A stretch of DNA of 64,000 nucleotides from a virus. The number at the start of each line of letters is the position of its first letter. Position 1 is the stretch's first letter. This document shows, one piece after another, positions 1 through 53,778 of this stretch. Where the stretch lies: positions 1 through 64,000 of IMG/VR virus record IMGVR_UViG_3300035438_001058; one strand, written 5' to 3'. The position numbers were made by a program, and so were the translations under genes. Below the pieces are notes generated by a model. That model searched no databases, was not told where the DNA came from, and saw only the letters and a program-made list of their open reading frames with translations.

Positions 1-2232
1 GCTTGAACTTTCAGTGGGTTGGAAGGAAAAATAGAGAAAGGTAATAAAGCTAAAGTAACTGCTGATGCTGTTGCCAAAGTTAAGGCGCACATTAAAGCGC
101 AATCTTTAGAAGTGGCTAAAGTATTTACACAAGCGGAAGCTGATGTTAACAGTCAAGTTAGAATTCCAGAAGACACTTTATCTCACGCAGCAAAACTTTT
201 AAATTTAAGTTTACCTGAAAAGTTAATTGTTGAAACTTCATCTGCTGAAGAAGTAGCTAAAAATTTAGATATAAGAAACAAAGTAATTGAAAAAGTAGTA
301 GAAAATTTTTATCTAAATTTTGCTATAAATCAATACTCACTTTCACAGATACTATACGGGGACGAAACTTTTTATAAATCTAAAGAAGACCAAACAAAAA
401 GGATTCAAATAGCAACTGCTACAGGAGACACTCTTTTAGTAGATGATAATCATGGAATACCTCGTGATTCCAAAGTAATGGTTGTTGAAGATTTAATTAG
501 AGTTGTAGATGAAGACTTAAGAAATATTCCAGCTGAAGCGTACAGAGCTGATTACGAAGCCTCTGATGCTGAAGGATTTATGCTGCCAGAATTCTACGAT
601 AAGATATCTAGAGCTTACGGGCAAGAAGCTATGACAGACATAGTAATGAAACCTGTTTATTTTTCTATCCAAAATGGCATTCCTGTAGCTATCAAATACT
701 CAGTTAAAGTATTGACGAATGAATTAGTAGATAAATTTCCTCACTTAGCTACTTATAGAGATGCTATGCGAGAAAGAGGAGCTGATCAAATGGTTTTCAA
801 ATCAGCTGTAAAAATCGGAGGTTTAAAAGGAATGGCTAAGTTAGATCAGAAAACAGGTGAGATTATTTCTACATCTGTAAACTCAGAAAACTTCTTAACT
901 TTAAACACTGCCAACTTAAGATTCCAATTAAACCCTGCGCACGATCCTGATGTATCTACAGCTAACCCTTCTCAAATTACAGCTCAAATTAATACTAATG
1001 GGCAAAATCCAAACGAAAGTTTTGAGTTAGCTAATTTAAACGCTGCTTTGTTAAACAGCGGGCTTAGAAGTGTGCAAAGTGATTTAAGATTGTCTGATAA
1101 AGGAACCCCAACAGAATCAACCGCCAGACAACTTCGTGAGACTATAATTAGATACGGAGAATCAAGTAACAATGCTGATGATGTTGTGAGGTTACTACAA
1201 TCCTCAGACCCAGTAACTTTTGATAAAGTTGATTTATCACTACCTTTGATAGCTGGACGTGTTGTGTCCACTATTGCGTCAATGATTTCCAGTGCTACTG
1301 TAGGTTTTAAATTCAAAGGTTCCAAACTAGTATTACAAGCGGATCTTGGAATTCAAAGTATCTATGACAGTGCATCTGGTAAAATGATGAAACGTAAACT
1401 TAATTACAGAGATTCTGAAGGTTATTGCGAAGTTATACTTCCAAGAATGTATGAAAACCATATGCAATTAGGCGACAAGTTAGTCCCTGGGCTTCAGAAT
1501 GGTGTAGTAGGCTTTAGAATACCGTCTACTAACTACCACTCTATGCTTCCATTGAAAGTAGTTGGGTTTTATGACGCACCATCAGGAGCAAAAGCAAACG
1601 TAGTTATAGCCCCTTCTGCTATAGTTTACTATCACGGATCTGACTATGATGTTGATAGTCTATTTATAATGAGAAAGTCTCAATTTAAAGACAAGAATCC
1701 TAAGGGAACTATTACTCCTACAGTAGATTTAAATACTATTTTATCTAAGTATTCCGATAAACATATTATTAATTCGGAGCTAGTAATAACAGCTGATTCA
1801 GTCGTAGGATTTAAAGGCACTAATCCTGCTAAAGCTGATCCTGTTACAGTAGATGGTTTGTTTTTGCACGAATACTTAGAAGGTAAAGTTATTGAAATGT
1901 CAAACCATACGGCAGCTTTATCCAGAACTTTGCTAACTGCTAAAACTCCTAAGGAAAAATCAGCTATAACTACACAACTAACTACTGCTAAAGATGATAT
2001 GTCTGTAATAGAAGATGTTATACAGCAATCTATTAAGAACAGCATAGTAGATTTATACACTACTAATATGTTAGATGTTAAGAATAGAACTGACTTGTTA
2101 ACTCCAATTTCTTTTGAGAATGTAAAGGGACTCAGAAGTGTTACAAAAGAAAAGCTATTGGAACTTTTAAAAGATGCTAATTTTCAAACAGATCTGCAAA
2201 ATGCGGGTATAATACAAAAAATATGTCAATAA
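1..2232 (+). CDS. Virion-packaged DNA-dependent RNA polymerase, catalytic part (5' end lies outside the window; in-frame TGA at 4-6)
   Basis: GFRIPST...YYHGSDYDVDSLF matches the two-barrel RNAP R-x-P and DxDxD catalytic motifs typical of crAss-like phage RNAPs. Frame 1 is open from base 1 apart from TGA at 4-6. Confidence 0.85.
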
Positions 2233-5200
2233 ATTGTTTAATAAATTTTACCACTGTAAATGAAGAGTCAGTCAGTTTTACGGAGGAACAATTTATAAGC
2301 TATGTTGCAGAGAATGGGTTTGGGGGGATGAAAATCCCCTCAGACAATCCATTGGCAAAATTAATAGTAAATAAATTAGATTTTCTTCGGCAGCCAGAAT
2401 CAGTTTCTGAATACTGAGCTAGAATGGCTATCAATAAAAGATTAATTGCGGAAGGAAAACCTACGTTAAATTCTAATACTTTATTAACATCAGCACAAGT
2501 AGACGCAGAATTAAATCCTTCTGGGCAGTTAACTGATTACAACACTCAAAGACAAATACGGTACAACACTTATTCAGGTATAGATCTAACAGGTATATCA
2601 GCAGCCTTTGGTAAAACTTTAGGATATGTTTTTGAAGCAGGGGCAATAGCATCTGTAATAGACGTTAATACTAAGGAAGTTATTGATCTAAATAAAGAAG
2701 AAGATGTCAAAGCTTTTTTAAAAAAATACGGTCAATACAGTATTGAAGCTGTTTTGAAAAACAATAAAAATTTTAAGATTGTTAGCAGGAAGGAGCCTGA
2801 GTTTACTAGTGCAAATCATTTTACAGTTGACAAAGAACCTTATACAGGTCTAAGTAGAAACACAAAGGGTAAATTTAAAAATATATTTGAGACAATTGAC
2901 TCTATTATCAACTTAGCTATTGACAACGTTAAAGAAGGTAAACTACACTTGATGGGTATTACAGGATCTAACGCAAATATATTCTTTTCTTTGTTAGCTA
3001 CAGGTATGCCTTTGAATACGGTAACACTTATAATGAAGAACCCTTTAATAGTAGAGCTAAGTACTAACGGTAAGAAAATAGATAACGCCGCCATTGATGT
3101 TAAAATAGGCGAATTAAAAAAGTCCTTAGAAGAACTTAAAGGTGAAGAGTATGTCAATATGCTATCAAAAAGTAAAGACATTGATACTAAGTTATTAGAA
3201 CAAATTTATTTAGGTGAACTTACTGGGGCTCTCGCCATAGAAGAAACTCTTAAATCTTTGCAGGTGCTTAGAAGTATGGCAGAAGTTGGTAAATATATGT
3301 TTAAAGCTTCTAAAGTATTTAAAGCTCTTATTAAACTTCCGAATAAAAAGTTTGAGATTGACGATACTGTAAATAATATAGAATCTTTAGGAATGTTTAA
3401 AGATGCCGCTGCGTCTGAAGCTGAGGTTAACAGTGAGTGGATAGATATAGCTGCAGAATTCGCGCGTACCAGCAATGACCCAGATATAGCTAGAGTACAA
3501 GCGCAGCAAGATCAAGAATTAGCTTTAAGTTTAGAAGAGTTAGAAGTTAAATCCTCTGCTAATTTAAAAAGGGAAGATCTTAAAACGAATGCCCAAGAGA
3601 AAGTTTCTGAGCTTTCTAAAACTATAAAAGAACTTAAAAGTAGAAAAACTAAAATTAATAAAATATTAGCAGGTGATAATATTTTATCCGAAGAAGAAAA
3701 GGCTATATTAGTAGAAGAACTAGATAAGAACGAATTAGAAGTAATAAGATTAGACAGTATAAGGGCTGATTTAAACAACGGTTTAACTAAAGTATCTAAT
3801 TATATAGCTAAACTAGTACAAACACCAGAAGGAAGCATTTTTGGTACTGAGAAAGCTGCTATACGTGCGGCATATGTTAATTCTGTTTTAAGAAAAACTG
3901 TTACTAGAGGTGTAGAAGGAAGATCAGATAGTCCTTTTACAACTGACACTACAATTTTAAGAATACCACACGTAGCATCTGTTTATAAAGTTCTTTTGAC
4001 CACACAAGGTTTATTGAATAAAACTTTCGCTGTTTACAATCCCACTATAACAAGTTTTATAAAGAATATAGTAGATAATTATAATATCTTTAAACAAGAG
4101 GACTCTACAGAAAATGTAGAAATAATTACCAAAGAATTCGTAAAATTTGTAGGATCTAATCTTACTTTTAAATTAGATGGGGCTGATTTTTCTACTGAAG
4201 TGCCTTATTCAGAATATCCTTTTGTATCCTCTAGAAATAAACAATATTGGGGGAAAGAAGCTTGGGCCCAAAGGTTTTTGGAAAAAGCTAGATTACTAGA
4301 TGATTCTAATGAAATGACAGAAAATAATTTTGTTAAAAATCTAGAGCTTAGCAATAATACTAAAACAGGACTTACTGAAGCTAGGATATTAGCTGATAAA
4401 GTAAAGGACGACGAAGTATTAGCTAGGATACGTAGAGATTTCGCAGCTTTAGCGGTAGATGAAACAGAGATAGCAGAAGGATATACTAGAGCGGACTTTG
4501 CTAGAGATATGTTTAAATACTCCCTTCTTTCATCTACTATGTATTACGAGAGAACTGGTTTTGCTCAAGTATTCCCAGAACATTGGGCAGTAGCGTATTC
4601 AAAATCGCTATCTTCCAGATTAAACGCTGTGCTGCCAAAAGACAGTGCGGCAACTGACATACATTTGGAAATGTTGAAGGACACCTTTATTACCCAGCTA
4701 ATGACTAACAATAGTTCTATGCTGAATTTCTTAAAGGCTAAACCTGAAGTAGTGGCTTCTAAGAAAGTAAACGGGAAAAAAGAAACTCTTTATGAAGGGT
4801 ATGACGAATTAAACAATGTACATTATCATCTAAAGTTTAAAGGGTCCCCTTATGAAGACGGTAAAAGTTCTGAATTTGTATCTCATTACGACAAAGCTGT
4901 ATATAGAGTTATTAAAACCCCGGGAAGTGTGGACACTTTCTATGTAAGAGTAGCTATGGCTCCCAACAGTAAGTTTTACAACTTTACTTTTAATAATTTA
5001 GGAGGTTCTGTACAACATCGGGAGATAACTTCTGGTAAATATTATGTAACACATTTAGACAATGCCAAAGGAAATGTTTTAAAAGCGCAACCTTTAACTA
5101 CTAACTTTTTGCCAGTAGGAACTGAGGTGCTTGCTTACGACCAAATGAATGTAGGTACTGACACTGCAACAGTTTATACGGTAACTAAAGTAAATGTTGA

Positions 5201-5951
5201 GAATGGCTCATATACTCTGAAAAAATCTAGAACTATAGATCTAAAAGATTATACACAAGGCGATAGACTACGTGCTTTTTACGCTAAATTTTCACCTAGA
5301 AAAACAACTAGTACTATAGCTGTTGACGATATAAAAAGAACGATGGCTAATCTAAAGAATGCTTCTAATACGGTGTTCTTAACCAATTCTAGAGAAAACG
5401 TAAGCGGGACATTAACTTTAAATATTCCGGATATTTCTCCAAATACTACGCAGGAAGAGTTAGCAGTAATAGTAGAGGACATACAAAAAGATATAGAAGC
5501 TTTACCTAATAATAAAAATTATTACGTGTCTTCAAAACTATTGGAGCAATTTAACGACTTTTCTTCTAAAAAAGCTATTCTATTAGCCGCTTTGTTTAGA
5601 CAAATAGGTTACAAAGAAAATAATGCTCCTGTAAGTCAAACTAAAGAAGGTTTGTCTGAGAGTATGAAACGAATAACTCTAGGAATATTAACTTTACCAC
5701 AATACAAGTTGCAAAAAGCTGGCAACGATGTGGCTTACACACACTCTGTTAAAAAGGATCGTGCGTTCAGAAACGTGGCAGTAGGGGATATTCTATGGGC
5801 TGTTAAAGATATTTATATGCACGTAACAGCAGTTACTGAAAATGAAGTGCATATGAGGGAATTTAAAAGTGCGGTATTCATGAGCATAGAAAAAGAAAAT
5901 ATAAGTTCAGATGAATTTGAAACAATTTATAACAAACATAATAACTGCTAA
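2223..5951 (+). CDS. Large virion cargo protein, probably the C-terminal part of a split RNAP (about 1242 aa with TGA 2415-2417 read as Trp)
   Basis: ORFs 2223..2417 and 2424..5951 are in the same frame and separated only by TGA-GCT-AGA. The IDSIINLAIDNVKE motif resembles the post-catalytic 'aVD.aKd' region of two-barrel RNAPs. Confidence 0.75.
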
Positions 5952-8900
5952 TGTGCCCAAATAAAAATTCACAAGAATGAAAAGATCTGGTTAGCAGATT
6001 TGGAGAAAAAGTAGCTTACATAAAATACTTTGCTTCAGACGAGATACAAACAGGAGATGAGCTTTCTAATATAAAAGAAAAGATTCGAGAAGCTGTATTA
6101 GGAAATGAAGAGTATTACGCTAAAAAATATGGGACATACCTAAAAGGATATTCAGCTACAAGTAATACTTTAGATGAAATGGTCGAAGCTTTTGCCCTCA
6201 GATTTACAGACTTGTCTCCAGTAATTAAAGGAGATGTAGTAGAAACTAATAAGGGAAATTTCTTATTGTTTCCAGAAGCAGATGCTGATTATGTTAGAAT
6301 GACCAATGTTCCTTCAGCAATGGACACCATGCTGCATGGTTTACAAGCAAAGTATGGCATACCGTTTACAGTTATAAATGATCCCAAACAAAAGTTTGCT
6401 GGCAAATACATAAATCAAGGGGATAAAAAGATGGTAGTGATTAACACTGCTTATGCTGATGAGAACACTCCTTTACACGAATATTATCACCCATTTGTCC
6501 GGTCCCTACTAGTTAGAAATAGACCTACTTTTGATATGCTTTTAAAGAAAGCAAGGTTAGATGGAGATGTTAGGAATGATTTAGAAGAAGTTGTAGTAGA
6601 CTTTTTAACTAAAAGTGCTAAGCAAAAAATAAATCTTAGTTTATTAGATGTTTTCTTTGATTTTATTAAGAAAATGTTAGGTATTAAACCTACCTTGACT
6701 ATTGATAATGCTACCACTTTAAGTGAAGTTATATCTTTAATAAATAAAGGAGAAGGTTTTAAAGAAGAAAGTACTTTAACCAAAGCTTATCAAAGAGCTG
6801 AAGATATGGCTAAAGACTTTAAAAACATGGTAAAAGACCGCAAAAAAGATGTAATAGTAGATTATATAGAAGCTCTTAAGAAGAACAGTAAAAATTATAA
6901 AACTTCTGACAGTAGTAATTTTTACCAAGATGATTCTAATAATGATGTAGCTAAACGTCTGTCTCCTTTTATAGGAGACGAAGACTTTGGGCAGTTCTCA
7001 CTTAAAGGCAAGAATAAAAAATACACTGTACCAGAGTTTAGGTTGAGAGAGTTATTAAGAAAGGCGGGTTTTAATTTGCAAGACAAGCCTTTAAGTACGG
7101 TAACAGAGACGTTTAAACTTGGAGATCAAACCTACACTGTGGCCCAATTATTAGCTGCGGAAGAATTGAAGTATAGTAAATTCCAGAAGTACGGTAAGAT
7201 GGTTCACTCTTTCTTACAGTTTAAACTTGAGACAGATCCAGACGCTAGAGTTAAAGCTAGAGCTGATGCTGTTAAGTATGCTAATGAATATCAAGCTGCT
7301 GGAGGTGAACCTTTTACTACTTTAGAAAATCACCCTAAACTTTCGGAAATTGATAAAAATTTTGAAGCGATATGTAAACGTGCGGGCATAACAATTACAG
7401 TGGATCTTGAGAAAGGAATTACCGCTAAAATGTTAGATAAAGTTCTTCCGGAGGTTATATTAGTATCTGATCTACTTACTGATGAAAATGGTGTGCCAAT
7501 TGGTACCACAGCTGATGGTATTATACAACACTCTAACGGAGAAATTTCCCTAATAGACTGGAAGACTGGTAATATAGTTAGTGATATGGGAACAGCTTAT
7601 TTAATGGCTTACGGAGAGAAGTTTGATTTAGCAGACTCGAAACTAAATAGAGGTTATTTGGAGTTAGCTTTCCGTGCAATGATATTAAAGGAGCAGCATC
7701 CAGACATGGTTTTTAGAAACATCAGAATAGTTAAACTTAATTATGATGGCTCTTCTCAGAATATGAATCTGGATCTAACACCTTTTTTAAATACTATAGG
7801 AGAATATTATAAGGTAAATAAACCTGAGATTTACGCCAAACTTCAATCGAAGAACCTATTGGAGGCAGCTTCATACGAAGGTGTTGGAGAAGATTTAGTA
7901 GGAGTGTATAAGCAAATTCCACAAGGATTGGAATATGCGGAACAAGTTGATTGGTTAAAAACTCAATTAGCAATATTACACGCCAATAAAACTAAAGAAG
8001 AGATTCAAAGAGACCCTGCTGTTCTTAAAAGATCTATTCAATTAACTAACGCAATATTAGAGTTAGAGAAAATTCCTGGAGCTAACTTTAACGAAAACAC
8101 TCCAGACCTTCCTTTTATAGGCAATCTAAAGAACTTTTCTGACATTGCTAATCCAAAGGTACAGACCTTACATAAAGTTTTATTAACAGCTAAAGAAACT
8201 ATACATAAAATAACTGGAGACAGGAATACTGAGCATGATAAATTAATGCTTGCTGTTGAAAAGGATGCTAAAGTAAAACGTAAAAACACAACCTTACAAG
8301 TGTCGGCTTCAGCTCTAGTACTTTACGGCGTAGTGGCGTATTCTTTCTTACCTTTTGCTGGAGGTTTATTACTGTACAAAATAGGTAAAAGAGCTTTTAC
8401 ATCTACAACTAAAGACTTTTACAGCTTTATGTGGAGACAGTCTACTGATGTGGGCCGTCCTGGTTACTATATGAATACTGGAGATACCTACATAGACGGG
8501 CAAGGTAAAGTTCAGAAGATGACTCAAGCTCAAACAGACTACAGGAATTTTATACAGCGTACTATGCGCGAAGATTTTAATAAAATTGCTAATAAAGTCG
8601 TCGGCCAAAAGTTGAGCGGGCAACCCATGTATATGTGGGAAAGACAAGGCTGGCCTTCTGAATTACCAGATGACTTTATGCCTCGCATTCCAAAACCAAC
8701 TGACGAACTTAGAGAAGAAGAAGACTTTACTTCTAATTATTTAGGTTTAAAAACAACTTTATCTAACAGCGCTCGTAAATACATGACATCATTTGTCGAG
8801 GATACTTTTGGTGATCCTGAAGGGACTATTCCTCTTAAGTATTTTAAGCACACAGGCTCTAGTGTAGTTGAAAATGGTATGCACTCTATGCACGCTGAAG

Positions 8901-10528
8901 CCAGTTATAAAAGTTTTATGGCGTCTTTACATTACAAAGATAACATGGACACTGTAAAGGATATGTTTATAGGATTGTCAAATGCTATGAATGAGGAATT
9001 AGATGAGAACCGTAAAGCAAAATATCCTGAGACTGTAAAATGGTTAGATAATCAGTTTTATCCTCAAGTTTTAGGAACATCAAAAGCGGTCACTATTAGC
9101 GCTAAGAAAATGAAGTTTACAGCTGGGGCTCTTACGGAGAAAATAACAGGTATTAAGGAAGGCACACCAATGTTCTTATCACAAGACGCGTTTTTAAGAG
9201 CTGTCAAAACAAGTGTGACTGCTTCTGTCATGGCTTTTAAAGTGTTTAGTCCGTTAAAAAACGCGGCTATGATTGCGACTCAAAACGCATCACAAGCTAC
9301 TCGTAATCTTGTAAATGGTGCTATAGGCAGTATAGTTGGAGTTCCTCCAGATACGTATGAAGGCATATCCCATAAAGCAGCTCATCCTCTATTCGTGGAT
9401 TTTTTATCGAAGAAATTATCTGGGAGACAAGATGAATCTAAACTATGGAACTTAGCTAAGAATTTTGATTTCTTGCCAGAAAGTTTCGGAGATTATGGAG
9501 CACAAGACGAACGGCTAATGTCAAATATGATAAATATAAGCACAATGTCTCACGCTTATGTATTCTACAATCTTGGCGAGACTATGGGGGCTTTGTGGCA
9601 ATTAGCCGGGCTAATGAAAGGTATTAAAGTTAAAGTAGACGGGAAAGAGATAAGTTTATGAGATGCTTATAATGACAAAGGTGAGTGGGCTGCTGGCGTT
9701 AGAGGTGTTGTAGAAGTAGCTCCGGGAGTATTTAAAAATCTAGAAGGATTAGACGTCTTAGAAATAAAGTCTCTGAAAAGAGCCAATGAGAAATTGAATG
9801 GATCTTACAGAAAGGAAGAAAAGACTGCTATGGAAGCTACTGTTATAGGAGAATACGTGTTTCAGTTTAAAAAATATTTTTACCAGTATTGGAAAACACT
9901 TGCGGCTAGCCCATATAAGGATATAACAGTCGGAAAGCACGTTTTAACGGGAGTTCGTCCTGACGGTATGCCTATATACCAATGGCACTCAGATGTCATG
10001 GAGGGGCAATTTAGAGTCTTATACAATGCTATTCTAGCTGGTATGTCCTTAAAGAAAGGATCCTTAAAGCATTACTTAACAGATACATCTATATACGGAG
10101 CTAATACTCTTAAAGGTCATAGAATTAGGGTTTTAGGTAACTCAGTAAACACCTTAATATGGTTCGCAATATTGTTGTCAGCTTTCCACGGATTTCTTGA
10201 CGATGACGAAGAAAAAAGTTTTGTGGGAAGACAACTACAAAAAACTATAGATGACTTAACAAGAGGCTTATCACCAAAAGATTTGATGGGTAACTTAGAG
10301 AAGCCAGTAGTAGCTTCTGAAAAGATATCTAAAGTAGGAGCAGCTACTTGGGATTTTATGACTGAAGGTGTATGGGGGGAAACAAATTCTGCCGGTAATA
10401 GGGTAGGAGCAAAAACTCTCATTAGATCTATTCCAGGGTTTTCTGGAGCAAGACAGATGTTGGATGTAATGGATTCCAGTTTAGGAGAAGATGTGTTTGA
10501 AAGTCCATTTATACCTAATTATAGGTAA
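5951..10528 (+). CDS. Giant virion cargo protein (about 1525 aa) with HExxH zincin-like motif, PD-(D/E)xK-like segment and TM helices; TGA at 5978 and 9659 read as Trp
   Basis: ATG 5951 overlaps the upstream TAA. The frame reads MCPNKNSQE*KDLV... into ORF 6179..9661, then ISL*DAY... into ORF 9794..10528 with no other stop. Motifs: HEYYHPF and ADGII...LIDWKTG. Confidence 0.8.
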
Positions 10529-42306: not shown

Positions 42307-42331
42307 AGTAGTAGCACAACCCTGGGGTTGT

Positions 42332-43132: not shown

Positions 43133-43330
43133 TTTTATATTTGAACTTTGGTTTGTTAGACCTTGGTAGTTAGCCCGTTCACTGATGTTCAATCAGCATA
43201 CCCCTTTTTCAGGGTTTTCCATAAATTTGCCTACTCTAGTTTACCCCTTTTCGGCTACCTGGGTAATGGTTACTGTGCTTGTAGAATGAGTGTCTACACT
43301 TAGCTGACTACCTTAGTCAGAGCACTTTTT

Positions 43331-43606
43331 TTACTCGATTATATCCCCCCTTACATGGGACGATATTAGAATCCGCCCTAAAGCGGTTTTACTTGTCAGG
43401 ATTAGAACCTGATTGTCGCACCCGACCAGTGCGATACCTGTCGAGTCCTTACACAGGACGGTGACGGGTTTTACTAGTTTGGAGTAGGCCCGCGATTCAC
43501 GAGCATTTACAACGTCTTCCGCGGGGCGGTTGATGTCATCGTAATCCGCAACTTGCAGCGCAAAGGCTGCGAAGGCTGTGACTACTATAATTATGAAATA
43601 TTTCAT
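43331..43606 (-). CDS. Small secreted or membrane protein
   Basis: Signal-like N-terminus. Confidence 0.6.
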   Translation of the reverse strand: MKYFIIIVVTAFAAFALQVADYDDINRPAEDVVNARESRAYSKLVKPVTVLCKDSTGIALVGCDNQVLILTSKTALGRILISSHVRGDIIE

Positions 43607-43627
43607 ATTTAAATTTTTTAATATTTC

Positions 43628-43978
43628 TCAAAGGCCTCTATATCGAATTGGCCAATGATGAGAAAAGGTAATATCAAGGATTTCCCCCTTTCTAGGAAAA
43701 GGGGAACTAAAGAAGGTGTTAAAATCAAATCCCTCTATGAAGAGGTTGTCGGTAGCGGAGAGGATCTCAAGAACGCATTCGGCGTAATTGAGGGCACTAG
43801 CACGTCCCCAGGGGAAAGCAAAAACAAGGTATGTTTTATATCTTGTTTTGCGGATTGCGTACCCACTTGCGTGGCTTAACACCAATTTTCCCTTGTTGAA
43901 GCTAGGTACTGTGTCTAAGTACCTAGCTTCCACTAATATGTCCTTCATTTTTTTATGGTTAAATTTCGCGTGGCTCAC
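43628..43978 (-). CDS. Hypothetical protein (TGA stop)
   Basis: 116-aa ORF; the start may be the internal MKDIL. Confidence 0.5.
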   Translation of the reverse strand: MSHAKFNHKKMKDILVEARYLDTVPSFNKGKLVLSHASGYAIRKTRYKTYLVFAFPWGRASALNYAECVLEILSATDNLFIEGFDFNTFFSSPFPRKGEILDITFSHHWPIRYRGL

Positions 43979-44285
43979 TATGAGACAATATTTCTGGTAC
44001 CCATTTTAGCCTACTACAAAGTCTATTGTGCAGCGTTCTGCACAATTCAGCTTCTGCCGGGGTTGCTGGGGCAAATTCCTCGCAAATTAATACGAGTTTT
44101 TTTATTCGGTCATTTGATAAATACCTAAAATAATAGGCATCGATAGGGATAAGGCAATCCTCGTCCGAGCAATGCCTCTCGTCGTCTATGTTATAGACGT
44201 ATTCATCAATAAGAGGGTTTTTAAAATTTGCGCAAACTCCTAGCGCTTTAGTTGACACTGTAAGCCTTGAAATGAAATGTCCCAT
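43959..44285 (-). CDS. Hypothetical protein
   Basis: 108-aa ORF with an A-rich leader. Confidence 0.55.
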   Translation of the reverse strand: MGHFISRLTVSTKALGVCANFKNPLIDEYVYNIDDERHCSDEDCLIPIDAYYFRYLSNDRIKKLVLICEEFAPATPAEAELCRTLHNRLCSRLKWVPEILSHSEPREI

Positions 44286-44389
44286 GATTTCGTTTTTTAA
44301 TTTATTAATTCATAGTTCGGCTATTTGCATTGGTTAGGTGCAAATATATTAAAATATAGACACAATGGGGTGGGAGGTTAGTTTTCTGG

Positions 44390-44902
44390 TTAGTTTTCTG
44401 GTTCTGTGACGTTTTCTGGCTTCTCTTCTGGCTTCTCTTCTGGCTTCTCTTCTGGCTTCTCGATTGCACTCAAAGAAACCAATTGATTGTACAAAAAAGT
44501 ATCCGACATCGGATTGATGCAACTTACCGATATCCATTGTATCCGCGCATCTGCGGTTGAAACCTGGAATTTGCATTGTGCTGGCCCTGCATTTAGTTGC
44601 AAGGCAACTTTCAAATGCATCTTGCACGTGTAAGGTATGTTGCCTACTAAAATTTCGGCAGTTCCTGTGCATTGCATCTTCTCTGAAGCAATGGTATATG
44701 TTTTGTCATCGGCACCAACACGAGACTCGATACGAGACGTTGGTAGCCCGCTACATACGTAAGACTTCAGCGTCACCGCCTGTATCGGATCGTTCTGAAC
44801 GAGCGCAAAAAGTTTTTGGTTTACAGAGCCACCACCGCCTGTTGGCGAAGTGATAGCCGCAAAAGCCGCCTTAACGGCTTCAAGTTTAGTTACCTGGAAC
44901 AT
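44390..44902 (-). CDS. Hypothetical protein with a (KPEE)n acidic tail; first gene of the leftward arm
   Basis: 170-aa ORF; 12-bp tandem repeats at about 44415-44460. Confidence 0.7.
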   Translation of the reverse strand: MFQVTKLEAVKAAFAAITSPTGGGGSVNQKLFALVQNDPIQAVTLKSYVCSGLPTSRIESRVGADDKTYTIASEKMQCTGTAEILVGNIPYTCKMHLKVALQLNAGPAQCKFQVSTADARIQWISVSCINPMSDTFLYNQLVSLSAIEKPEEKPEEKPEEKPENVTEPEN

Positions 44903-44990
44903 AATTGAAATGATTTTATAATGTTAAAATGAAAAACGATATGAGTAACCCCCCACCCCATTTGTGCCAACAAAAGCGAAGCGGGGGTAT

Positions 44991-45160
44991 GAAGTTGGGG
45001 GCCTAACTCTTTAACCCGAATATGTAAGTTTGACTCTTTAACACGAATATGTAAGTTGGGGGCCAAGCTCTTTAATAGACATATATATATATATATATAT
45101 AAATGAAGGGGGGGGGTCTTTATATAAATGGGGGGGTATCTTTATTTTAAAGGGGGGCGT
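44991..45160. repeat. Direct-repeat, (AT)n and G-run cluster at the strand-divergence point (candidate origin or genome terminus)
   Basis: ACTCTTTAAC(C/A)CGAATATGTAAGTT at 45006 and 45033; AAGTTGGGGGCC twice; (AT)10 at 45081-45100; several G runs. Confidence 0.7.
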
Positions 45161-45178
45161 ATTTAGTCACTAGAATAC

Positions 45179-45209
45179 TTGCTTTTTCTCTTTTAATGTC
45201 GTATCTTTG
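45179..45209 (+). promoter_or_regulatory. Bacteroidota sigma-70-type promoter
   Basis: TTG-N20-TATCTTTG matches the -33 TTG / -7 TAnnTTTG consensus. Confidence 0.7.
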
Positions 45210-45222
45210 TAAGAAATGTTAT

Positions 45223-45444
45223 ATGGAAAAGATCAATCATCCCACTCACTATCAAGCTGGTAATGACACTTATGAGGTTATAAAGGTTATAGATGCGTGG
45301 GAATTAAATTTCAGTTTAGGGAATGTAGTTAAGTATCTTTATAGGGCTGGTAAGAAGGATAATGTGTTAGAGGATCTGCAAAAAGCCCTCTGGTATCTAC
45401 AAAATGAGATAAAAAACACAGAAAATAAAGTTTTTTTAAAATAA
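45223..45444 (+). CDS. DUF3310-like protein
   Basis: INHPTHY...EVIKVI...FSLGNVVKYLYRAGKK...EDLQKALWYL. Confidence 0.85.
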   Translation: MEKINHPTHYQAGNDTYEVIKVIDAWELNFSLGNVVKYLYRAGKKDNVLEDLQKALWYLQNEIKNTENKVFLK

Positions 45445-45477
45445 ATGAAAATAAATTGAAAATAAATGACAAAAAAC

Positions 45478-45508
45478 TTGCATTTCGCATTTTAATGTTG
45501 TATCTTTG
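45478..45508 (+). promoter_or_regulatory. Bacteroidota sigma-70-type promoter (second copy)
   Basis: TTG-N20-TATCTTTG; shares TTTTAATGTyGTATCTTTGTA with the 45179 copy. Confidence 0.7.
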
Positions 45509-45514
45509 TACTTA

Positions 45515-45940
45515 TTAACGAAGAAGCAATTCTTCCCTTGGAAACACCAATAGCAACCATCTCTGTCCGAAGAGATGTACGACCCTACGACACCACAGCA
45601 AGCACTGACGTAGTCCTGGGTCCAGAAGTCGGATTGCCTACTAAGTTAGTTTAGGGAGTAGGTGCTTTTCTCCGATAGTTGCGCAAATGCGTATCATAAA
45701 TGCGAGAATTACTGTTGATTAATAAGTCGGAAAACTTATTTTTTGGGTCGCCCTTAATTGCGGAGCACTGGCAGTATATTAAGTAGGATTCGTAAACCCC
45801 GACCGGCTCTTTGAGGTAGAGAAGGTTCTTGTCAAAACTTTAAAAAGTGGAGGCAGGGCATTGCTATATCTTAATGTGAACTACATCATCAACCCCCTAC
45901 CCCCTTCCAGGGGAGATTGATTTGAAAAAAATCAATCTAT
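45515..45940 (+). ncRNA. Candidate large structured non-coding RNA
   Basis: ORF-free, downstream of a promoter, with many nested stems (see findings). Confidence 0.55.
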
Positions 45941-45952
45941 AAAATAGAAATT

Positions 45953-46318
45953 ATGATAAAGATTACAACTGATTCCAAACTAGTTTTCTTCCAAAAGATT
46001 CTGGCTGTTATATCTGCTCTGTCTCCAGAGGACAAGCAGCTATCTTCTTCGGAGTTAGATACTCTATCAAGGTTTCTAGCTCTTCCCCGTCAGTATGATT
46101 ACTTTCCATTTACGGCTAAAGCTAGGAAAGAGATATATAGGCAGTACACTCCTAATATGTCAGTGCAGATTGTTTCTGCTAGAGTTACTTCTCTGATATT
46201 AAAAGGTTACCTTATAAGGGATGAAGATAATTTTGTAGATTTCTCCCCACAGATAAAGAAACTAAGGACACTAAATTCATTCGATGTTAAAATACAAGAT
46301 TCACCCACTAATAGCTAA
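45953..46318 (+). CDS. Putative winged-helix DNA-binding protein
   Basis: LSSSELDTL and VTSLILKGYLIR give a MarR-like pattern. Confidence 0.5.
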   Translation: MIKITTDSKLVFFQKILAVISALSPEDKQLSSSELDTLSRFLALPRQYDYFPFTAKARKEIYRQYTPNMSVQIVSARVTSLILKGYLIRDEDNFVDFSPQIKKLRTLNSFDVKIQDSPTNS

Positions 46319-46622
46319 GACAGCTGAAGACCTTAATATGCCTTTAGAGGTGGTAAGTTCAGTGGTATTACATGAGTTTGAAACCATAAAGAATAATATT
46401 GTTAATCCCATCTATCTAGGTTATAGGTTAGAGGATCTAGGTAAATTCTTCTTTAAAAGAAATCAGTATTATTCTGCGGCCTTTAGGTTGTTAATTAGGT
46501 ATAGGAAAGGTACAGTTAATAAGGAATTGCTTCAGAAGTTTATTCAGATGAGGCATTTAGTTAATAAATATTATTTTTTACAAAAGTATAAACGCCGATT
46601 TGGAAGTTGGCACTGGAAATAA
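46284..46622 (+). CDS. HU/IHF-like DNA-binding protein
   Basis: LIAKTAEDLNMPLEVVSSVV...YRLEDLGKF resembles the HU/IHF helix-helix-strand pattern. Confidence 0.55.
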   Translation: MLKYKIHPLIAKTAEDLNMPLEVVSSVVLHEFETIKNNIVNPIYLGYRLEDLGKFFFKRNQYYSAAFRLLIRYRKGTVNKELLQKFIQMRHLVNKYYFLQKYKRRFGSWHWK

Positions 46623-46623
46623 A

Positions 46624-46956
46624 ATGAACAGGAAAATGACAAATAACGCTAATTCTCAGCACGCTCAACAAGCAGCTATGAATCACCAAATGCACACACA
46701 CTCTATTACCGTACTTACTGAGTTGTACAAGAATACGCCAATTGAATCTAATTTAAGGCCAGCACTTGAGGAGGCATTACTAGGATTGCTAGAGCCATTC
46801 TTACCTAGGTTAGCTGCTCCACCAACATTTCAATCAACACTTGAACCAACATTTCAATCAAAAAGTATTCAATCAGAAGGTATTCAATCAGAAGGTGTTG
46901 TCTTAGACACCTATAATCCAGATTACACTTATACAGAATCTAAAATTATTCAGTAA
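46624..46956 (+). CDS. Hypothetical protein
   Basis: ORF 46600..46956; ATG 46624 follows the upstream stop. Confidence 0.55.
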   Translation: MNRKMTNNANSQHAQQAAMNHQMHTHSITVLTELYKNTPIESNLRPALEEALLGLLEPFLPRLAAPPTFQSTLEPTFQSKSIQSEGIQSEGVVLDTYNPDYTYTESKIIQ

Positions 46957-47321
46957 TGGTTTTAACTCAAGATAAAGTACTTATTCAGTTGGATGAACAT
47001 CCAGATCACACTGTGACAGAATCTAATATTTATATCCCACAGTTTATAAATGCTGAGTCAGATGGTGGGCGCCCAATGTCTATTCCTTCTAATCAGAAGT
47101 ATCTAGCTTCAGGTGTTGTGGTTGATTTATCAGATGCGGCTAAAAAGAAGATGGAAGATAACAACACTCCTATTAAGAAAGGAGATAAAGTTTTCGTATC
47201 TACATCGGTAGTTAACCAAGGTTATCATTTTCAACTTAAGAGAGATTCTATAGTTTATGATTTTGATGGTCTAGTACTAATTCCAACTATATTAATAGAG
47301 GCAATATTAAATGAAAAATAA
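46956..47321 (+). CDS. groES: GroES-like co-chaperonin
   Basis: DKVLIQ...TESNIYIP...SGVVV...IKKGDKV...IEAIL pattern. Confidence 0.65.
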   Translation: MVLTQDKVLIQLDEHPDHTVTESNIYIPQFINAESDGGRPMSIPSNQKYLASGVVVDLSDAAKKKMEDNNTPIKKGDKVFVSTSVVNQGYHFQLKRDSIVYDFDGLVLIPTILIEAILNEK

Positions 47322-47694
47322 ACAAAAACCTAATACTCCAAAATCAGAAGTATTAAAAACAATAGAAACCCCAATGGTAGAACAACATATTTTCGATAGT
47401 CTTAATAGCGAGCACTCAAAATTTAAGGAAGAAATATCTATTATTACGAGTGAGCTTGAGGCTGTTAAGAAAGAGAGAGAAGCCTTTCAAAATATAGCTA
47501 ATACAGCGGCTTCTAAGTTGGTAAGTATTGAATCTGCTGTTACTCCTTTTCTTAATAGAAAGTTCAATGTTGTAACAGCTATATATCATTTAAAGGATGT
47601 GGTCGAACTTATTAAACAGATTGTAGAAGCTGTTAAAGAATTCCGTGCTCAGTTTATGGCACCTAACGTTAAACCTGATGATTCTACTAAATAA
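47311..47694 (+). CDS. Coiled-coil hypothetical protein
   Basis: 127-aa ORF. Confidence 0.6.
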   Translation: MKNKQKPNTPKSEVLKTIETPMVEQHIFDSLNSEHSKFKEEISIITSELEAVKKEREAFQNIANTAASKLVSIESAVTPFLNRKFNVVTAIYHLKDVVELIKQIVEAVKEFRAQFMAPNVKPDDSTK

Positions 47695-48172
47695 TTTTGA
47701 TCCTTTTCAAGATTTTTTTAATAGCAATCCACAATTAAAGATCTTATTTAAAGATTATTTAAAAGTTCCTTCTTCCCATATGTGAGGTCTATTTCTATAT
47801 TCTCATCCAGACTCAAAGTTTTTTAATGAGTCTCCAGAAGATAGAAAAGACCTCATATTTAAGGATTATCTTAAGAAAGATAAGACATTTGATTGGGATA
47901 AATATGAGGAGCTATTAAAGAAGATTGAAGTCTCTGTTTTAACTAAAGCTCAAAGAGCCCTTATGAGATGGGAACAGACGTTACATGAACGGGATGATTT
48001 CATAGCTTCTATTCCTTATACTCTCGAGACTTTTGAGGCTAAGGATAAGATGATGGCGATTACCCCAAAGCTTTGAGATCAATATGAAGCTGTATTAGAT
48101 AGGTTGAATAAAGATCAAGGATCTACAATGGGGGACATAGAAGAGTCTCTATCAGAAAAAGGTATTATATAA
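47678..48172 (+). CDS. Hypothetical protein missing from the ORF track (164 aa with TGA 47783 and 48074 read as Trp); possible small terminase
   Basis: MILLNNFDPFQDFFNSNPQL...SSHM*GLFLYSHPDSKFF...TPKL*DQYE...EESLSEKGII-TAA fills the 47694-48183 gap. Confidence 0.75.
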
Positions 48173-48477: not shown

Positions 48478-48757
48478 GGGGGTGCCAGGTATTGATTGCA
48501 CTCATAGGTTTGGTATTACTAGCAAGCAGTCTAAAGACTATAAATTTAAATAATCGACAATAATACTAATGACTTTGGTATCGGACTTCCGTCCTTTTCC
48601 ACAGAAGCAGTTGCTCCTTCTGTTACTCAAGAGCAGCCAGTTTACCAGTACGCATAAGTTTACCACACTAATAGACTATAATATAGGTGTACAGAAGCTT
48701 GTAATTCTAGAATATTAAACGAGTCGTAAGACAGCGGTTCGAATCCGCTCACCTCCA
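48478..48757 (+). ncRNA. ssrA: tmRNA
   Basis: 5' GGGGGTG pairs with 3' CACCTCC-A, including a G3:U Ala identity pair. T arm AGCGG-TTCGAAT-CCGCT. Tag ORF 48556-48657 follows TAAATAATC and ends in YA-TAA. Confidence 0.9.
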
Positions 48758-48772
48758 CTAAAATTAATTATT

Positions 48773-49099: not shown

Positions 49100-49171
49100 G
49101 GGGATATGGGGTAATCGGTAACCGGGAAGTCTTCAAAACTTTAGTTGTCTGTTCGAGTCAGACTGTCCTCG
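49100..49171 (+). tRNA. Opal (UGA) suppressor tRNA, anticodon UCA, probably tRNA-Trp
   Basis: Acceptor GGGGATA/TGTCCTC with discriminator G; anticodon arm GAAGT-CTTCAAA-ACTTT (TCA at 49133-49135); short variable loop; T arm GTCTG-TTCGAGT-CAGAC. Confidence 0.9.
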
Positions 49172-49698: not shown

Positions 49699-49944
49699 AT
49701 GACTATAAAGGTTAATATTTCTTTCGAACTTTGGCCATATCAACAGTCTTACTCAGTAGAAATACCAGAAGATAAGTTTAAGGAAATGGATAAGTATGTG
49801 GATTCTATAACATCTAATTTAAAGATGTCATTATTATCCCATGTACGTGTCCATCACCCTAATTTATGGTATAAATATTCTCCTTTAGAAGATCAAATAC
49901 TGGCAACTTTAAAAATAGAAAATCACACACACAAAATTAAATAA
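49699..49944 (+). CDS. Hypothetical protein
   Basis: 81-aa ORF; TAATG overlap with groEL. Confidence 0.6.
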   Translation: MTIKVNISFELWPYQQSYSVEIPEDKFKEMDKYVDSITSNLKMSLLSHVRVHHPNLWYKYSPLEDQILATLKIENHTHKIK

Positions 49945-51545
49945 TGACAAAGAATATTCATTTAGAAAAAGAAACACGAGATAAAATGCTGGAAGGTGTT
50001 TTAACTTTGGCACACGCAGTAGGATCTACACTAGGACCAATGGGGTCAAACGTAGTAATTGAGACTCCTTACGGAGCTACCACAGTTACTAAGGATGGAG
50101 TCACTGTAGCTAAACATATTGATTTAGATGATGCTGTGCAAAATTTAGGAGCGCAGATATTAAAACAAGCTGCTTCAAGAACAGCTACTCTTGCTGGCGA
50201 TGGTACAACAACTGCTACTGTAATAGCTGCGTCTTTAGTACAGTCTGCGCATAAATTAATTACTGCGGGTGTGAAGCCTATTGATATTAAAAGAAGGTTA
50301 GAAATTCTCTTATTAGAAGCTCTGAATAAGATTCGGATTCAAGCTAAGAGTGTTGACCTTAATAGGATTAAAGAGATCGCCACTATCTCAGCAAATAATG
50401 ATGAGGAAATGGGGGCTTTAATTCAAGACGCTTACAACCATGTTGGCCCCAATGGAATGATCACTTTAGAGGAATCTAAGACAGGTCTAACTCATTTGGT
50501 TATGGAAGAAGGAGTTTCTATTGACAAAGGATTTGTATCTCCTTATTTTATCACTGATTCTGCAAAAGGAGAATGTATTCTAGAGAATCCATTTATCTTT
50601 ATTACTGATTCTAAAGTTAGATATACTCAAGATATAGTACCTATATTGGAAATTGCTGCTTCTAAATCAAGGCCCCTTCTTATTATAGGAGACGAAGTAG
50701 ATGCTCAAGCTCTTCAGTTGCTCGTACTAAATAAGATGCGCGGGACAATACAAGTATGTGCTATAAATGCCCCTTCTTTTGGGGATAACAGAACAGCGAT
50801 ATTAGAAGATATTGCTGCCCTAACATCTACTACTATTATAACCGCTAAAGCTGGCACTAGGTTAGAGGATACTCCAGAAAGAGCATTAGGAAATGCTCAA
50901 AAAGTTATCATATCAAAGTCGAAGACTATATTAGTAGGACCTAAGAATAACTTAGAGGCTATTGAGTCTAGAGCTGAAGAAATTCGTAACTCTATGGAAT
51001 TGGAGCAAGATCTTTATTTAAAGAATAGACTTCAAAAAAGATTGGCTGATCTTACTGCTAAAGTAGCTGTGCTTCATGTTGGGGGAGCTACTGAAACTGA
51101 ATTAAAAGAACGCAAAGATCGTGTAGATGATGCTCTAAGGGCTACTGCTTGTGCCATACAAAAAGGTTACCTTATTGGCGGCGGTGTAGCTCTAGCTCGT
51201 GTGTCTTCTTTCATAGAGATAAAAGATGCTTTAATAGATCCTATTTTTATAAACGCACTAACATCCCCTCTAAAATTAATAGCTTCAAATGCAGGGCAAA
51301 CAGGAGAAGTAGTTTTAGCTAAAGTTTTATCTTCAGAAGATCTTGATATTGGTTTTAACGCTCGCACGCTCAAGTATTCTAATTTATTAGAGGATGGTGT
51401 AATAGATCCCGCGTTAGTAGTTGAGCAAGCACTCTCAAACGCAGTATCAGCGGCTTCTATGATATTACTTTCTGCTACGGCAATCACAAATAAAGATAGA
51501 AAACCTCCTTTTAATCCAGGTAATATGGAAGATTATGCTGCATAA
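49944..51545 (+). CDS. groEL: Chaperonin GroEL
   Basis: STLGPMG, VTKDGVTVAK, AGDGTTTATV and GGATETELKERKDRVDDAL motifs. Confidence 0.97.
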   Translation: MTKNIHLEKETRDKMLEGVLTLAHAVGSTLGPMGSNVVIETPYGATTVTKDGVTVAKHIDLDDAVQNLGAQILKQAASRTATLAGDGTTTATVIAASLVQSAHKLITAGVKPIDIKRRLEILLLEALNKIRIQAKSVDLNRIKEIATISANNDEEMGALIQDAYNHVGPNGMITLEESKTGLTHLVMEEGVSIDKGFVSPYFITDSAKGECILENPFIFITDSKVRYTQDIVPILEIAASKSRPLLIIGDEVDAQALQLLVLNKMRGTIQVCAINAPSFGDNRTAILEDIAALTSTTIITAKAGTRLEDTPERALGNAQKVIISKSKTILVGPKNNLEAIESRAEEIRNSMELEQDLYLKNRLQKRLADLTAKVAVLHVGGATETELKERKDRVDDALRATACAIQKGYLIGGGVALARVSSFIEIKDALIDPIFINALTSPLKLIASNAGQTGEVVLAKVLSSEDLDIGFNARTLKYSNLLEDGVIDPALVVEQALSNAVSAASMILLSATAITNKDRKPPFNPGNMEDYAA

Positions 51546-53778
51546 TGCACAAAATTTCTTAGTCAAAGATGTGGAAATTCTCCATCCTTTGTCTCAAGAT
51601 TATCGTTCTTATTGAAGAGAACACAAAAGAAGATGTATTGAAGGTTATTGGGTGGGTGGCATTTGGATGCCGCCTGCCCTTTACTATTATGTAAACTTTC
51701 ATACTATAAAACTTAATAAAAGTATTCACACTAATACTAAGTCGTACGGTAGACCTTTGTTACGGGATATTGAGTGGGAATTTTTCTATAATTATTCTGA
51801 AGCGAGAGGTTTCTCAGGTTTTAAGAACGATGATAAGTATTCTTGTCATAGAATACTTTTGAATACTGAAGCTACAGACGATTACTTAATTAAATATTAC
51901 CCAGAGACTGTAAATTCTAAGGGGGAAAGAAAGACTTACGTGCCAGCTAGGACGTATATGCGTCAAGTACATCCTTTTGAATCTTCTCCTTTGTTTCAGA
52001 ACGAGATTAGGAATTTTATGATGTTAGGATCTCGTGGATTTGGTAAATCTTTCTCTGTATCAGGACTCATAGCTCATAATTTCTTATTTGATGGAGCTAC
52101 TGAATACAGCGAGGAAAAGATAATGAATCCGGACGCTGCTGAGATATTAGTAGGGGCGGCCAAATCTGATAGATCCGCAGATATTCTTAAAAAAGTGAAG
52201 GATGCATTTGATTTTTTACCCGGAAAACAGATGGTTAATAATAGGACACATCCATCACCATTCTCTAAACGATTTAGCGGATCTTGAGCAGTTAATTCCA
52301 CTATTGCAGCAGAATATAAACGTAAAACAGAAGGTCAATGAACCACAGTAGGTTCCAGATCTAATATAAAGCACAGATCTTTCAACTCAGATGCTTTTGC
52401 AGCTCAAGGAACCAGGCCCATTTTACTAGTTTTGGAGGAAATAGGTATGTTTCCTAATTTAAAGGAAGTACACGCTAACACAGTGGATAACTTAACTGAC
52501 GGTTACCGTAAGACTGGTATGGCTATGATGTTAGGAACAGGTGGTGACATGGAACAAGGTACTTTAGATGCTTCTGAAATGTTTTACGAGCCTGATAAAT
52601 ATGATATATTGTCTTTTTCTAATGACTGAGAGAGTTCTGGTAACATAGGATACTTTGTTCCAGCGTATTTAGCGCTCAATCAATTTAAAGATGCGCAAGG
52701 AAATACCGACATAGCGGCTGCTAAGAAGGAGATTGATTCTGTTAGGCGCAAGAAACGTGGAAACTCAGGATCTTCAGATGCGTTGAATAAGGAAATGCAG
52801 TATAGACCTATTGTTCCATCTGAAATGTTCTTAACTAAGACAGCTAACATCTTTCCTGCCGCTGAAATTAGGAGAAGGCTTTCAGAAGTGCAGTCATTTG
52901 ATCTGTATAACCAGTCAGAGAAGAAAGTTAATCTATATTTCGACCCAAAATCTCAGTTTAATGGTGTATCTTACAATATAAATGACTCTTTAAACGCCAT
53001 TAGCTCGTTCCCGTACAAGGGAGATGATAGAGAAGGGGCTGTTGTTTTATACGAATTACCTAAGTTTATAGAAGACAAGGTCCCGTCAGATGCCTATATT
53101 ATAGGATGTGACCCATTTAGAGATGATACGAATACAGGAGAATCTTTGGCAGCTATATATGTTATGAAAACCTCTAAATACATATCTAGTATAGGGTATG
53201 ATGAGATAGTAGCCTCGTATATTGGTAGACCATACTTCGGTAAAAATGAGGTAAACGAAACTCTATATAAATTGTCCTTATTTTATGGGGGTGCTAAGAT
53301 TTATTTTGAGAATGCAGTAGGAAATGTAAAAGATTACTTTGAGAAAATCAGAAGACTAGACTTATTAGCTAGGCAACCAGTCACAGTTTTTAATAAGAAA
53401 GCTTCTTATGATTCATCCCCGCAAGTTATTTATGGGTACCCAATGTCTAATGATAAAGTAAAATGAGAAGCGATACAATACTTACGCTCTTGGTTATTGC
53501 AAGAACGTGAAGAAAATAAAAGAAATCTGGATTTAATTATAGATCCAGGCCTACTTCAAGAGTTATTGGCCTTTAATATGAGTATAAATACTGATAGAGT
53601 AATGTCTTTAGTAGGTTGTATAATAGGATTAGAAGAAATAAACAATATCTCGAAAAGAAAGCAAGAGTTTTTGTCTGAAGATAGCGCACTTCAGAAGGAC
53701 ATTAATAGGTTAATTATAAATAATAAACGTTTATTTCAAGATGTTAAATTTCCCAAAGCAACGTCTCTCCTATTCTAA
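51535..53778 (+). CDS. terL: Terminase large subunit (747 aa with TGA at 51613, 52285, 52339, 52627 and 53464 read as Trp)
   Basis: Four track ORFs and the gaps between them form one frame: YRSY*REHKRRCIEGYW, GSRGFGKS (Walker A), LLVLEEIG (Walker B), GTGG, YIIGCDPF (nuclease), NTDRVMS. Confidence 0.92.

Follow-up and report, generated by a model that had tools for sequence, protein, structure and literature searches.

Layout of the locus

We analysed the first 64,000 nucleotides (nt), here called the window, of one linear contig of 85,208 nt (IMG/VR virus record IMGVR_UViG_3300035438_001058), a phage sequence in which the codon TGA is, judged by the DNA itself, used in two ways: as tryptophan (Trp) in the replication genes, in the large terminase gene (TerL) and in other recoded genes, and as a stop in one contiguous block of genes. 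From left to right the window holds three giant open reading frames (ORFs; 1-10528, plus strand), a leftward replication arm of 20 genes (11038-26950, minus strand), the block of 26 genes that ends at TGA (27020-44902, minus strand), a divergent control region (44903-45510), six small rightward genes (45196-47694, plus strand), the first recoded gene of the rightward arm (47645-48172, plus strand; 175 amino acids, aa), genes for a transfer-messenger RNA (tmRNA; 48478-48760, plus strand) and a transfer RNA, tRNA(UCA) (49100-49171, plus strand), TerL (51550-53778, plus strand) and a head module (53741-64000, plus strand, continuing to 65235).

The crAss-type TerL, portal and major capsid protein genes, all on the plus strand from 51.5 kb onward, match PHROGs 6681, 6547 and 11589 (E = 1e-67 to 1e-117). 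Among cultured phages, the TerL matches phi14:2 best (37% identity), followed by gut crAss phages. By its sequence the phage is a freshwater crAss-like member of Crassvirales, with Cellulophaga phage phi14:2 as the nearest cultured relative. Public runs with matching sequence come from 12 studies, and the labelled sources are lake-water, freshwater and crustacean metagenomes; no RNA run is listed among them. A search of GenBank phages returned no near match to the phage DNA, and no paper about this lineage turned up in a literature search. A CHU_C type IX secretion domain and Bacteroidota-type promoter boxes suggest that the host is probably a Bacteroidota bacterium using the standard code; TGA is not known to be reassigned within the Bacteroidota.

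TGA as a Trp codon outside the block

In a previous sequence-only reading of the window, 23 in-frame TGAs had been listed as Trp codons. Every one of them is present in the DNA and lies in frame with a long ORF, and we found three more (21136, 13051 and 13030), which brings the totals to 26 in the window and 42 on the 85-kb contig. Four fall in the giant ORFs (4, 2415, 5978 and 9659), and each of these is opposite TGG or TGA in two related contigs, G002 and G003. The replication arm, assigned through PHROGs to a nuclease, an exonuclease, a primase, Sak4, a DnaB-like helicase, an SF2 helicase, PolA and others, carries 15 in-frame TGAs in 8 of its 20 genes (11864, 13198, 13114, 13051, 13030, 16130, 16013, 15776, 15707, 17164, 18345, 22255, 21136, 26001 and 26474), with one at codon 33 of PolA and four in the primase, and all 20 genes end in TAA or TAG. 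The earlier claim that the entire replisome depends on readthrough therefore stands for PolA, the primase, two helicases, Sak4 and a nuclease, but goes too far for the arm as a whole, as only 8 of the 20 genes carry TGA. Two further TGAs (47783 and 48074) lie in the first recoded gene of the rightward arm and face TGG in relatives. The TerL gene (PHROG 6681, E = 3e-103) contains five (51613, 52285, 52339, 52627 and 53464) next to four TGG, so that TGA makes up 5 of its 9 Trp codons. The head module from 53.7 to 65.2 kb, in which PHROGs identify the portal, the major capsid protein and others, has 33 TGG, no TGA and only TAA or TAG stops, and can be read in either code.

Three motifs that the in-frame TGAs were said to split are real: PDFIGDG[W]IIETKG at 13198 is a PD-(D/E)xK nuclease motif, GID[W]NRIF at 18345 belongs to the DnaB-like helicase and Y[W]REHKRR at 51613 to TerL. 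The TGA at 51460 is not a sense codon, as homologs start their TerL downstream of it. The TGA at 21136 overlaps the next gene as ATGA and could pass for a true stop, but homologs continue in frame and have TGG in G003 and G004; likewise, 13051 and 13030 are not true stops, since homologs continue in frame and the tail after 13051 is conserved.

Four related viral contigs (G001-G004, 87-100 kb) were compared whole with the contig. Identity to the relatives is 54% (G001 and G002) and 62% (G003) for PolA and 63-67% (G002-G004) for TerL. At least one of G002-G004 could be aligned at 38 of the 42 TGA sites of the contig. As the sequence-only reading would lead one to expect of homologs, the 98 aligned cells opposite these TGAs are strongly enriched in Trp codons, with 39 TGG and 30 TGA (69/98, 70%), against a background of 274 Trp codons at 28,072 other aligned positions (1%). 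TGG occurs in at least one relative opposite 24 TGA sites, and in the reverse direction TGAs of the relatives lie opposite TGG of the window. One site, 15776, is opposite Lys in all three relatives. When TerL was aligned with 98 full-length homologs, its five TGAs faced Trp in 84, 73, 90, 71 and 58 sequences, and the other residues at these columns were mostly aromatic. On this comparative evidence, TGA is a Trp codon outside the block. A rule for the downstream context of sense TGAs (a purine follows in 37/40, p = 0.002 versus TGG) was dropped because it was not reproduced in G003 or G002.

TGA as a stop codon in the 27.0-44.9 kb block

The block spans 17.9 kb and 5537 codons. As had been proposed, no gene in it is internally broken: its 26 genes contain 70 TGG and no in-frame TGA, and 11 of them (42%) end in TGA, at 27600, 28888, 29426, 31706, 32121, 32582, 35398, 38460, 39277, 40188 and 43628. 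The contig-wide tally outside the block is 166 TGG, 42 TGA and no gene ending in TGA. The difference between the block and the remainder is significant for both codons and stops (Fisher's test, p = 3e-6 and 5e-7), and the probability of finding no TGA in the block at the rate seen elsewhere is 1e-7.

Several of these stops have a context that fits a gene end. ATGA or GTGA couplings are indeed present at 32582, 35398, 39277 and 40188, and the TGA at 43628 is followed by an AT-rich spacer and then by a new ATG with a signal-peptide-like start. The gene at 40188-40874 (minus strand), a CHU_C type IX secretion cargo by Pfam, had been said to stop exactly at the natural end of its domain, after GDITLIK; this was borne out, with a Pfam match that leaves only the last 13 residues of the protein and the last 14 positions of the profile uncovered. 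We also compared the ends of the block genes with those of their homologs, which would run on past the terminal TGA if it were a sense codon. Homologs in G002 and G003 terminate at the same aligned positions, with TAA, TAG or TGA. The glucosaminidase-domain protein that ends at TGA 31706 (31706-32242, minus strand) aligns to its last residue with a G003 protein ending in TAG. A second glucosaminidase-domain gene (36432-37229, minus strand) ends in TAA, and its G003 homolog has TGA two residues further on.

Gene calls with translation tables 11 and 4 were compared for each module, as had been suggested. With table 4, coding-strand coverage of the replication arm climbs from 0.90 to 0.97 and that of the rightward arm from 0.82-0.86 to 0.92-0.94, a gain of 4-12 points outside the block. 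Between 27 and 45 kb it adds only 3 points, while the overlap of same-strand ORFs grows from 12% to 30%. Taken together, these sequence comparisons indicate that TGA is a stop codon inside the block. A tandem backup stop directly follows 3 of the 11 TGA stops (TAG in each case) versus 0 of 15 control stops (about p = 0.06); as this is not clearly above the controls, tandem stops were dropped as a feature of the block.

Most block products match no PHROG family. Family searches identified, in addition to the two glucosaminidase-domain proteins, an AAA+ protein (30098-31456, minus strand), a VWA protein (34277-35401, minus strand) and a MoxR-like ATPase (35398-36393, minus strand). The MoxR-like protein has homologs of 331-352 aa, matching its own length, and the nearest ones lie on phage-sized contigs of 58-107 kb, not on bacterial ones; a search of IMG/VR for related loci of this protein found none. 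The MoxR-like AAA+ ATPase and the VWA protein form a pair (34277-36393, minus strand) with GTGA translational coupling, and this pair is kept across the phage clade on phage-sized contigs.

The boundary and its conservation in related phages

A sharp boundary near 27 kb, inside one co-directional arm, had been proposed, and we place it at 26950/27020, in a 69-nt intergenic stretch (26951-27019, minus strand) that separates the block from the recoded replication genes. In the relatives, the boundary falls between the same gene pair, the homologs of 27020-27616 and 26330-26950, beside PolA. The block genes are syntenic upstream of PolA in all four relatives at only 21-49% identity, and include the MoxR-like ATPase, the VWA protein, a glucosaminidase and the AAA+ protein. 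The stretches homologous to the block hold 0, 0, 2 and 0 TGA versus 13-29 TGG, the replication genes 21-26 TGA versus 39-47 TGG and the other arm 5-11 TGA versus 86-101 TGG; thus, the replication genes are the most recoded module in the four relatives (about 35% versus 5-10% in the structural arm).

The junction was also recovered independently. A contig of run X9, from a separate lake study, spans 26456-27301 with 2 differences and bridges it; Logan contigs are short, and this is the only junction bridged by a listed record. Four runs from four studies cover 25.9-42.5 kb at a depth similar to that of the neighbouring sequence, and 42.5-45.2 kb is variable or thinly covered in some runs. GC content is 0.45 in the block versus 0.33-0.40 elsewhere, with steps at 27 kb and 45 kb, and GC at third codon positions (GC3) is 0.47 versus 0.25-0.37.

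On its right side the block meets the divergent control region. This region contains tandem 25-nt repeats (45006-45057) and two copies of a rightward-facing 38-nt element (45174-45211 and 45473-45510, plus strand) with Bacteroidota-type promoter boxes (TTG ... TATCTTTG). Consensus scans for promoters and terminators over 26-45.9 kb gave promoter-like sites no more often than shuffled sequence and showed no decisive signal where the code changes at 27 kb; a strict Bacteroidota -33/-7 pattern had three matches only, none of them informative. The six small genes beyond the control region all end in TAA and have no in-frame TGA, which extends the TGA-free zone to 47.7 kb, but they hold only 4 Trp codons and give no statistical power. 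They are compatible with both codes, and the G003 homolog of 46284-46622 ends in TGA. The block and the six small genes together form a 20.7-kb zone that is legible to a standard-code ribosome.

A candidate suppressor tRNA and a tmRNA

The tRNA(UCA) gene found by ARAGORN at 49100-49171 scores 52.8 bits with the Rfam tRNA model. The tRNA is canonical, with a short variable loop, a G1-C72 pair and the discriminator G73. In bacterial tRNA-Trp, G73 serves as an identity element, and variants of this tRNA with a UCA anticodon accept Trp. From these sequence features, the tRNA is probably an opal suppressor that carries Trp. In G003, a counterpart with A1-U72 and G73 lies at the same genomic place, where ARAGORN missed it; the window tRNA has no look-alike in GenBank phages.

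The tmRNA gene, which scores 54.6 bits in Rfam, lies 340 nt upstream of the tRNA(UCA) gene. It is a phage tmRNA with a long non-canonical tag, predicted at 33 residues and ending in YA, and its pairing with a tRNA(UCA) is kept in G002. This tmRNA might rescue ribosomes that read through host TGA stops.

Proposed order of expression and alternative explanations

The sequence-only reading held that the code switches during infection, with a sharp boundary near 27 kb. Its description of the two sides and of the sharp boundary stands, whereas a switch in time is something that we infer. We consider it probable that the phage is recoded through a suppressor tRNA and that the standard-code block contains the first-expressed genes. 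The block and the six small genes would be translated first, by unmodified host machinery. Host RNA polymerase would start at the rightward Bacteroidota-type promoters at 45.2-45.5 kb and reach the tmRNA and tRNA(UCA) genes about 3.5 kb downstream. Once charged by the host tryptophanyl-tRNA synthetase (TrpRS) and accumulated, the tRNA(UCA) would compete with release factor 2, and only afterwards would full-length PolA, primase, helicases, Sak4, nuclease, terminase, tail and polymerase proteins be made, so that translation, besides transcription, would delay replication and assembly. Suppression would probably be partial, which would account for the low share of TGA among Trp codons (a fifth) and for its avoidance in the abundant portal and capsid genes. 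What bears on this proposed timing is the position of the block next to the divergent promoters and the analogy with phi14:2, in which the same arm is an early class.

Several observations weigh against this reading. In the rightward arm, the tRNA(UCA) gene is preceded by the first recoded gene. The block is not known to be transcribed before the replication genes, as the corresponding arm of phi14:2, by analogy, forms one early class; the expression timing is a prediction, as is the amino acid charged to the tRNA(UCA), whose G1-C72 pair differs from the A1-U72 of its G003 counterpart. At the position of the window suppressor, G002 has a structurally different tRNA(UCA) of 94 nt with a long variable arm (L061 7644-7737, minus strand), which scores best with the tRNA-Sec model (38.9 bits, threshold 47), although the TGAs of G002 sit at Trp columns. 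A UCA tRNA was sought in G004 and none was detected; together with the long-arm tRNA of G002, this shows a decoder that is not uniform across the clade, and from these sequences it seems to have been replaced within it. A search around the tRNA(UCA) gene found no gene for a release factor, TrpRS or other translation protein.

That TGA stands for a different residue, be it selenocysteine, glycine (code 25) or arginine, is extremely improbable. ARAGORN does label the window tRNA 'SeC', but solely from its anticodon, and the G002 tRNA(UCA) resembles the tRNA-Sec model; yet the columns opposite TGA hold TGG and not Cys, Gly or Arg codons, nor are they the Cys or selenocysteine columns expected of selenocysteine. 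A tRNA-Sec would have a long variable arm and 8+5 stems, whereas the window tRNA shows 7+5 stems in the Rfam alignment and its variable loop is short. The TGG and TGA codons of the relatives at these sites thus exclude the selenocysteine and glycine readings, and equally the view that the interrupted genes are pseudogenes. An organism-wide code 4 of the Mycoplasma type does not fit either, because there TGA makes up 80-90% of Trp codons (Mgcod preprint, 10.1101/2022.06.29.495998), whereas here it accounts for about 20% of those outside the block and 42/278 overall, and 11 genes stop at it. An artefact, whether a chimeric assembly of two phages, sequencing errors or pseudogenes, has a practically negligible chance of being the cause: the GC steps at 27 kb and 45 kb would suit a chimera, but the independent study's contig bridges the 27-kb junction, the four runs cover 25.9-42.5 kb at similar depth, the four relatives share the layout and the TGAs fall at conserved Trp columns that often have TGA in the relatives as well. 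The raised GC and GC3 of the block, and its many genes without a PHROG match, could also mean that it was recently imported from a standard-code phage or host and is not yet adapted; this we regard as very improbable, since relatives keep the block genes in synteny beside PolA with proteins that are only 21-49% identical, GC is raised in the same block there too and the closest MoxR homologs lie on phage-sized contigs. The retention of block and boundary in four relatives, together with the bridging contig, excludes both misassembly and recent acquisition.

The main rival, which we hold to be unlikely, assumes no temporal switch. The suppressor would be low and roughly constant, TGA would act as an expression dial, and the TGA stops of the block would be leaky but harmless; low-copy enzymes such as replication proteins and terminase would tolerate drift from TGG to TGA in an AT-rich genome, while abundant proteins would purge it. 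The small share of TGA among Trp codons would fit, as would the absence of TGA from the portal, capsid and neighbouring genes (33 TGG) although these are late genes, the strong recoding of replication genes relative to the structural arm in the four relatives and the three block TGA stops with an immediate TAG, although that last excess is weak. However, drift alone fails to explain why one contiguous block has no sense TGA in 70 Trp codons and TGA stops in 42% of its genes, or why the relatives show the same split (0-2 TGA versus 13-29 TGG), and the position of the block, right beside the divergent promoters, is the one expected of first-expressed genes. We prefer suppressor-tRNA recoding with a block of first-expressed genes.

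A more specific version of the preferred reading, which we put forward only tentatively and by analogy with phi14:2, is that in this freshwater clade the code, and not transcription, splits one arm into two classes. An injected RNA polymerase would transcribe the whole arm, the standard-code host-takeover genes would be translated at once, and the replication genes would be locked for as long as the rightward operon, transcribed by host polymerase, had not supplied tRNA(UCA). Later readthrough of the block TGA stops, several of which overlap the next start, would damp early-gene expression, and the adjacent phage tmRNA would handle ribosomes running past host TGA stops. If this is true, one transcription class would be divided into two translation classes.

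Relation to known split-code phages

Block-wise use of code 11 together with code 4 or 15 in crAss-like phages has already been published (Yutin 2021, PMC7886860; Mgcod preprint 10.1101/2022.06.29.495998; bioRxiv 10.1101/2021.08.26.457843), with TGA aligning with itself or with TGG as it does here (10.1101/2022.06.29.495998), and suppressor tRNAs with an early-standard, late-recoded model have been proposed for other recoded phages (bioRxiv 10.1101/2021.08.26.457843). The kind of split code described here is therefore already known, and the differences from published cases are modest. The published split-code Crassvirales (PMC7886860; 10.1101/2022.06.29.495998) likewise combine a standard-code block, a recoded block and a phage suppressor tRNA, but they are gut phages in which it is mostly the late genes that are recoded, with replication genes that are standard or dual-coded, and the code changes along with the coding strand. 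The present phage, in contrast, is from lake water and of a phi14:2-like lineage, its left boundary lies inside one co-directional arm, its replication genes rank among the most heavily recoded (a clear pattern in the relatives), and its standard block truly stops at TGA (42% of genes).

The phages Agate, Jade and Sapphire (bioRxiv 10.1101/2021.08.26.457843) also read TGA as Trp through a suppressor tRNA, have standard-code hosts and are partially recoded, and the order proposed for them is the same, with standard-code genes first and recoded genes after the suppressor appears. In Agate, the replication genes are in the standard code and the lysis genes are the most recoded, whereas both glucosaminidase genes of the present phage lie in the standard-code block. 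Jade carries genes for TrpRS and release factor 1, none of which were found around the tRNA(UCA) gene here. The Lak megaphages, with genomes of more than 500 kb, belong to another phage lineage and have TAG recoded. Their replication genes, however, are for the most part in the alternative code: the Fig. S5 legend of the Borges preprint (10.1101/2021.08.26.457843) gives these genes as 'mostly' recoded in Lak phages, and the preprint describes them as 'variably' recoded in several clades. The zeta crAss-like phage Lera (PMC12386605) shares TGA as Trp in TerL, helicase and RNA polymerase and a tRNA-Sup(UCA), with TGA in about 18% of its ORFs; it differs in its gut habitat, in its far larger genome with 26 tRNAs and two suppressor tRNAs, and in that recoding concerns mostly structural genes.

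Phi14:2 itself (NC_021806; Steigviridae) shares the two-arm layout: in one arm, small unknown genes precede the polymerase and replication genes, and the opposite arm holds, as here, a gp66-like virion RNA polymerase and structural (packaging, head and tail) genes. As annotated, it uses the standard code and has PolB, not PolA, and the part examined lists no suppressor tRNA. All of its replicative arm belongs to a single early class, which the injected RNA polymerase transcribes (bioRxiv 10.1101/2020.03.07.982082).

A recoded phage has a single infection cycle in which to turn a cell with the standard code to its own, and how and when this conversion happens has no experimental demonstration for TGA. 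The clade described here offers a compact, clear-cut case, with one suppressor tRNA, a sharply bounded standard-code block and the replication genes as the main locked class. It is also directly testable, as time-resolved transcriptomics exists for phi14:2 and freshwater Bacteroidota hosts are often culturable. For annotation, the consequence is that neither table 11 nor table 4 alone calls the genome correctly.

Other features of the contig and its relatives

No terminal repeat was found on the 85,208-nt contig. Its ends (window 1-2232 and 84170-85208) fall inside the gp66-like giant gene, and the genome is incomplete. The portion at 1-2232 (plus strand) encodes a virion RNA polymerase homolog, namely the C-terminal ~740 aa of a ~4000-aa protein (tblastn to phi14:2 g066, gp66, E = 1e-20), and the fragment at 1-2229 matches the C-terminal half of gp66. 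Compared with G002 and G003, the N-terminal ~3250 codons of this gene, roughly 10 kb, lie off the contig, and the DFDxD motif is not present in the on-contig part. The other two giant ORFs are 1242 aa (2223-5951, plus strand) and 1525 aa (5951-10528, plus strand) long. GroEL (49944-51545), also recognised by the PHROG search, has no Trp codon at all.

Directly after the second copy of the 38-nt element comes a stretch of about 440 nt without ORFs (45511-45952); at a comparable place, phi14:2 produces abundant early non-coding RNAs. Inside the standard-code block, a further tRNA gene (38241-38331, minus strand; Rfam tRNA, 46.7 bits) has 19 extra nt in its anticodon loop. The ARAGORN intron model makes it Arg(UCG); unspliced, it forms a long arm, made of a 10-bp anticodon stem and tipped by GUUCAA (z = -4.6). 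In G003, a tRNA of the early region likewise carries an insert, of 47 nt. A Pistol ribozyme (63 bits; L071 88-148, plus strand) and a type-P3 twister ribozyme (48 bits; L061 16463-16526, plus strand) are present in relatives and were not found in the window. In G001 and G002, Sak4 (L050 18561-20093) is split in two by an inserted 247-aa ORF, which is probably a mobile intron or a homing-endonuclease insertion.

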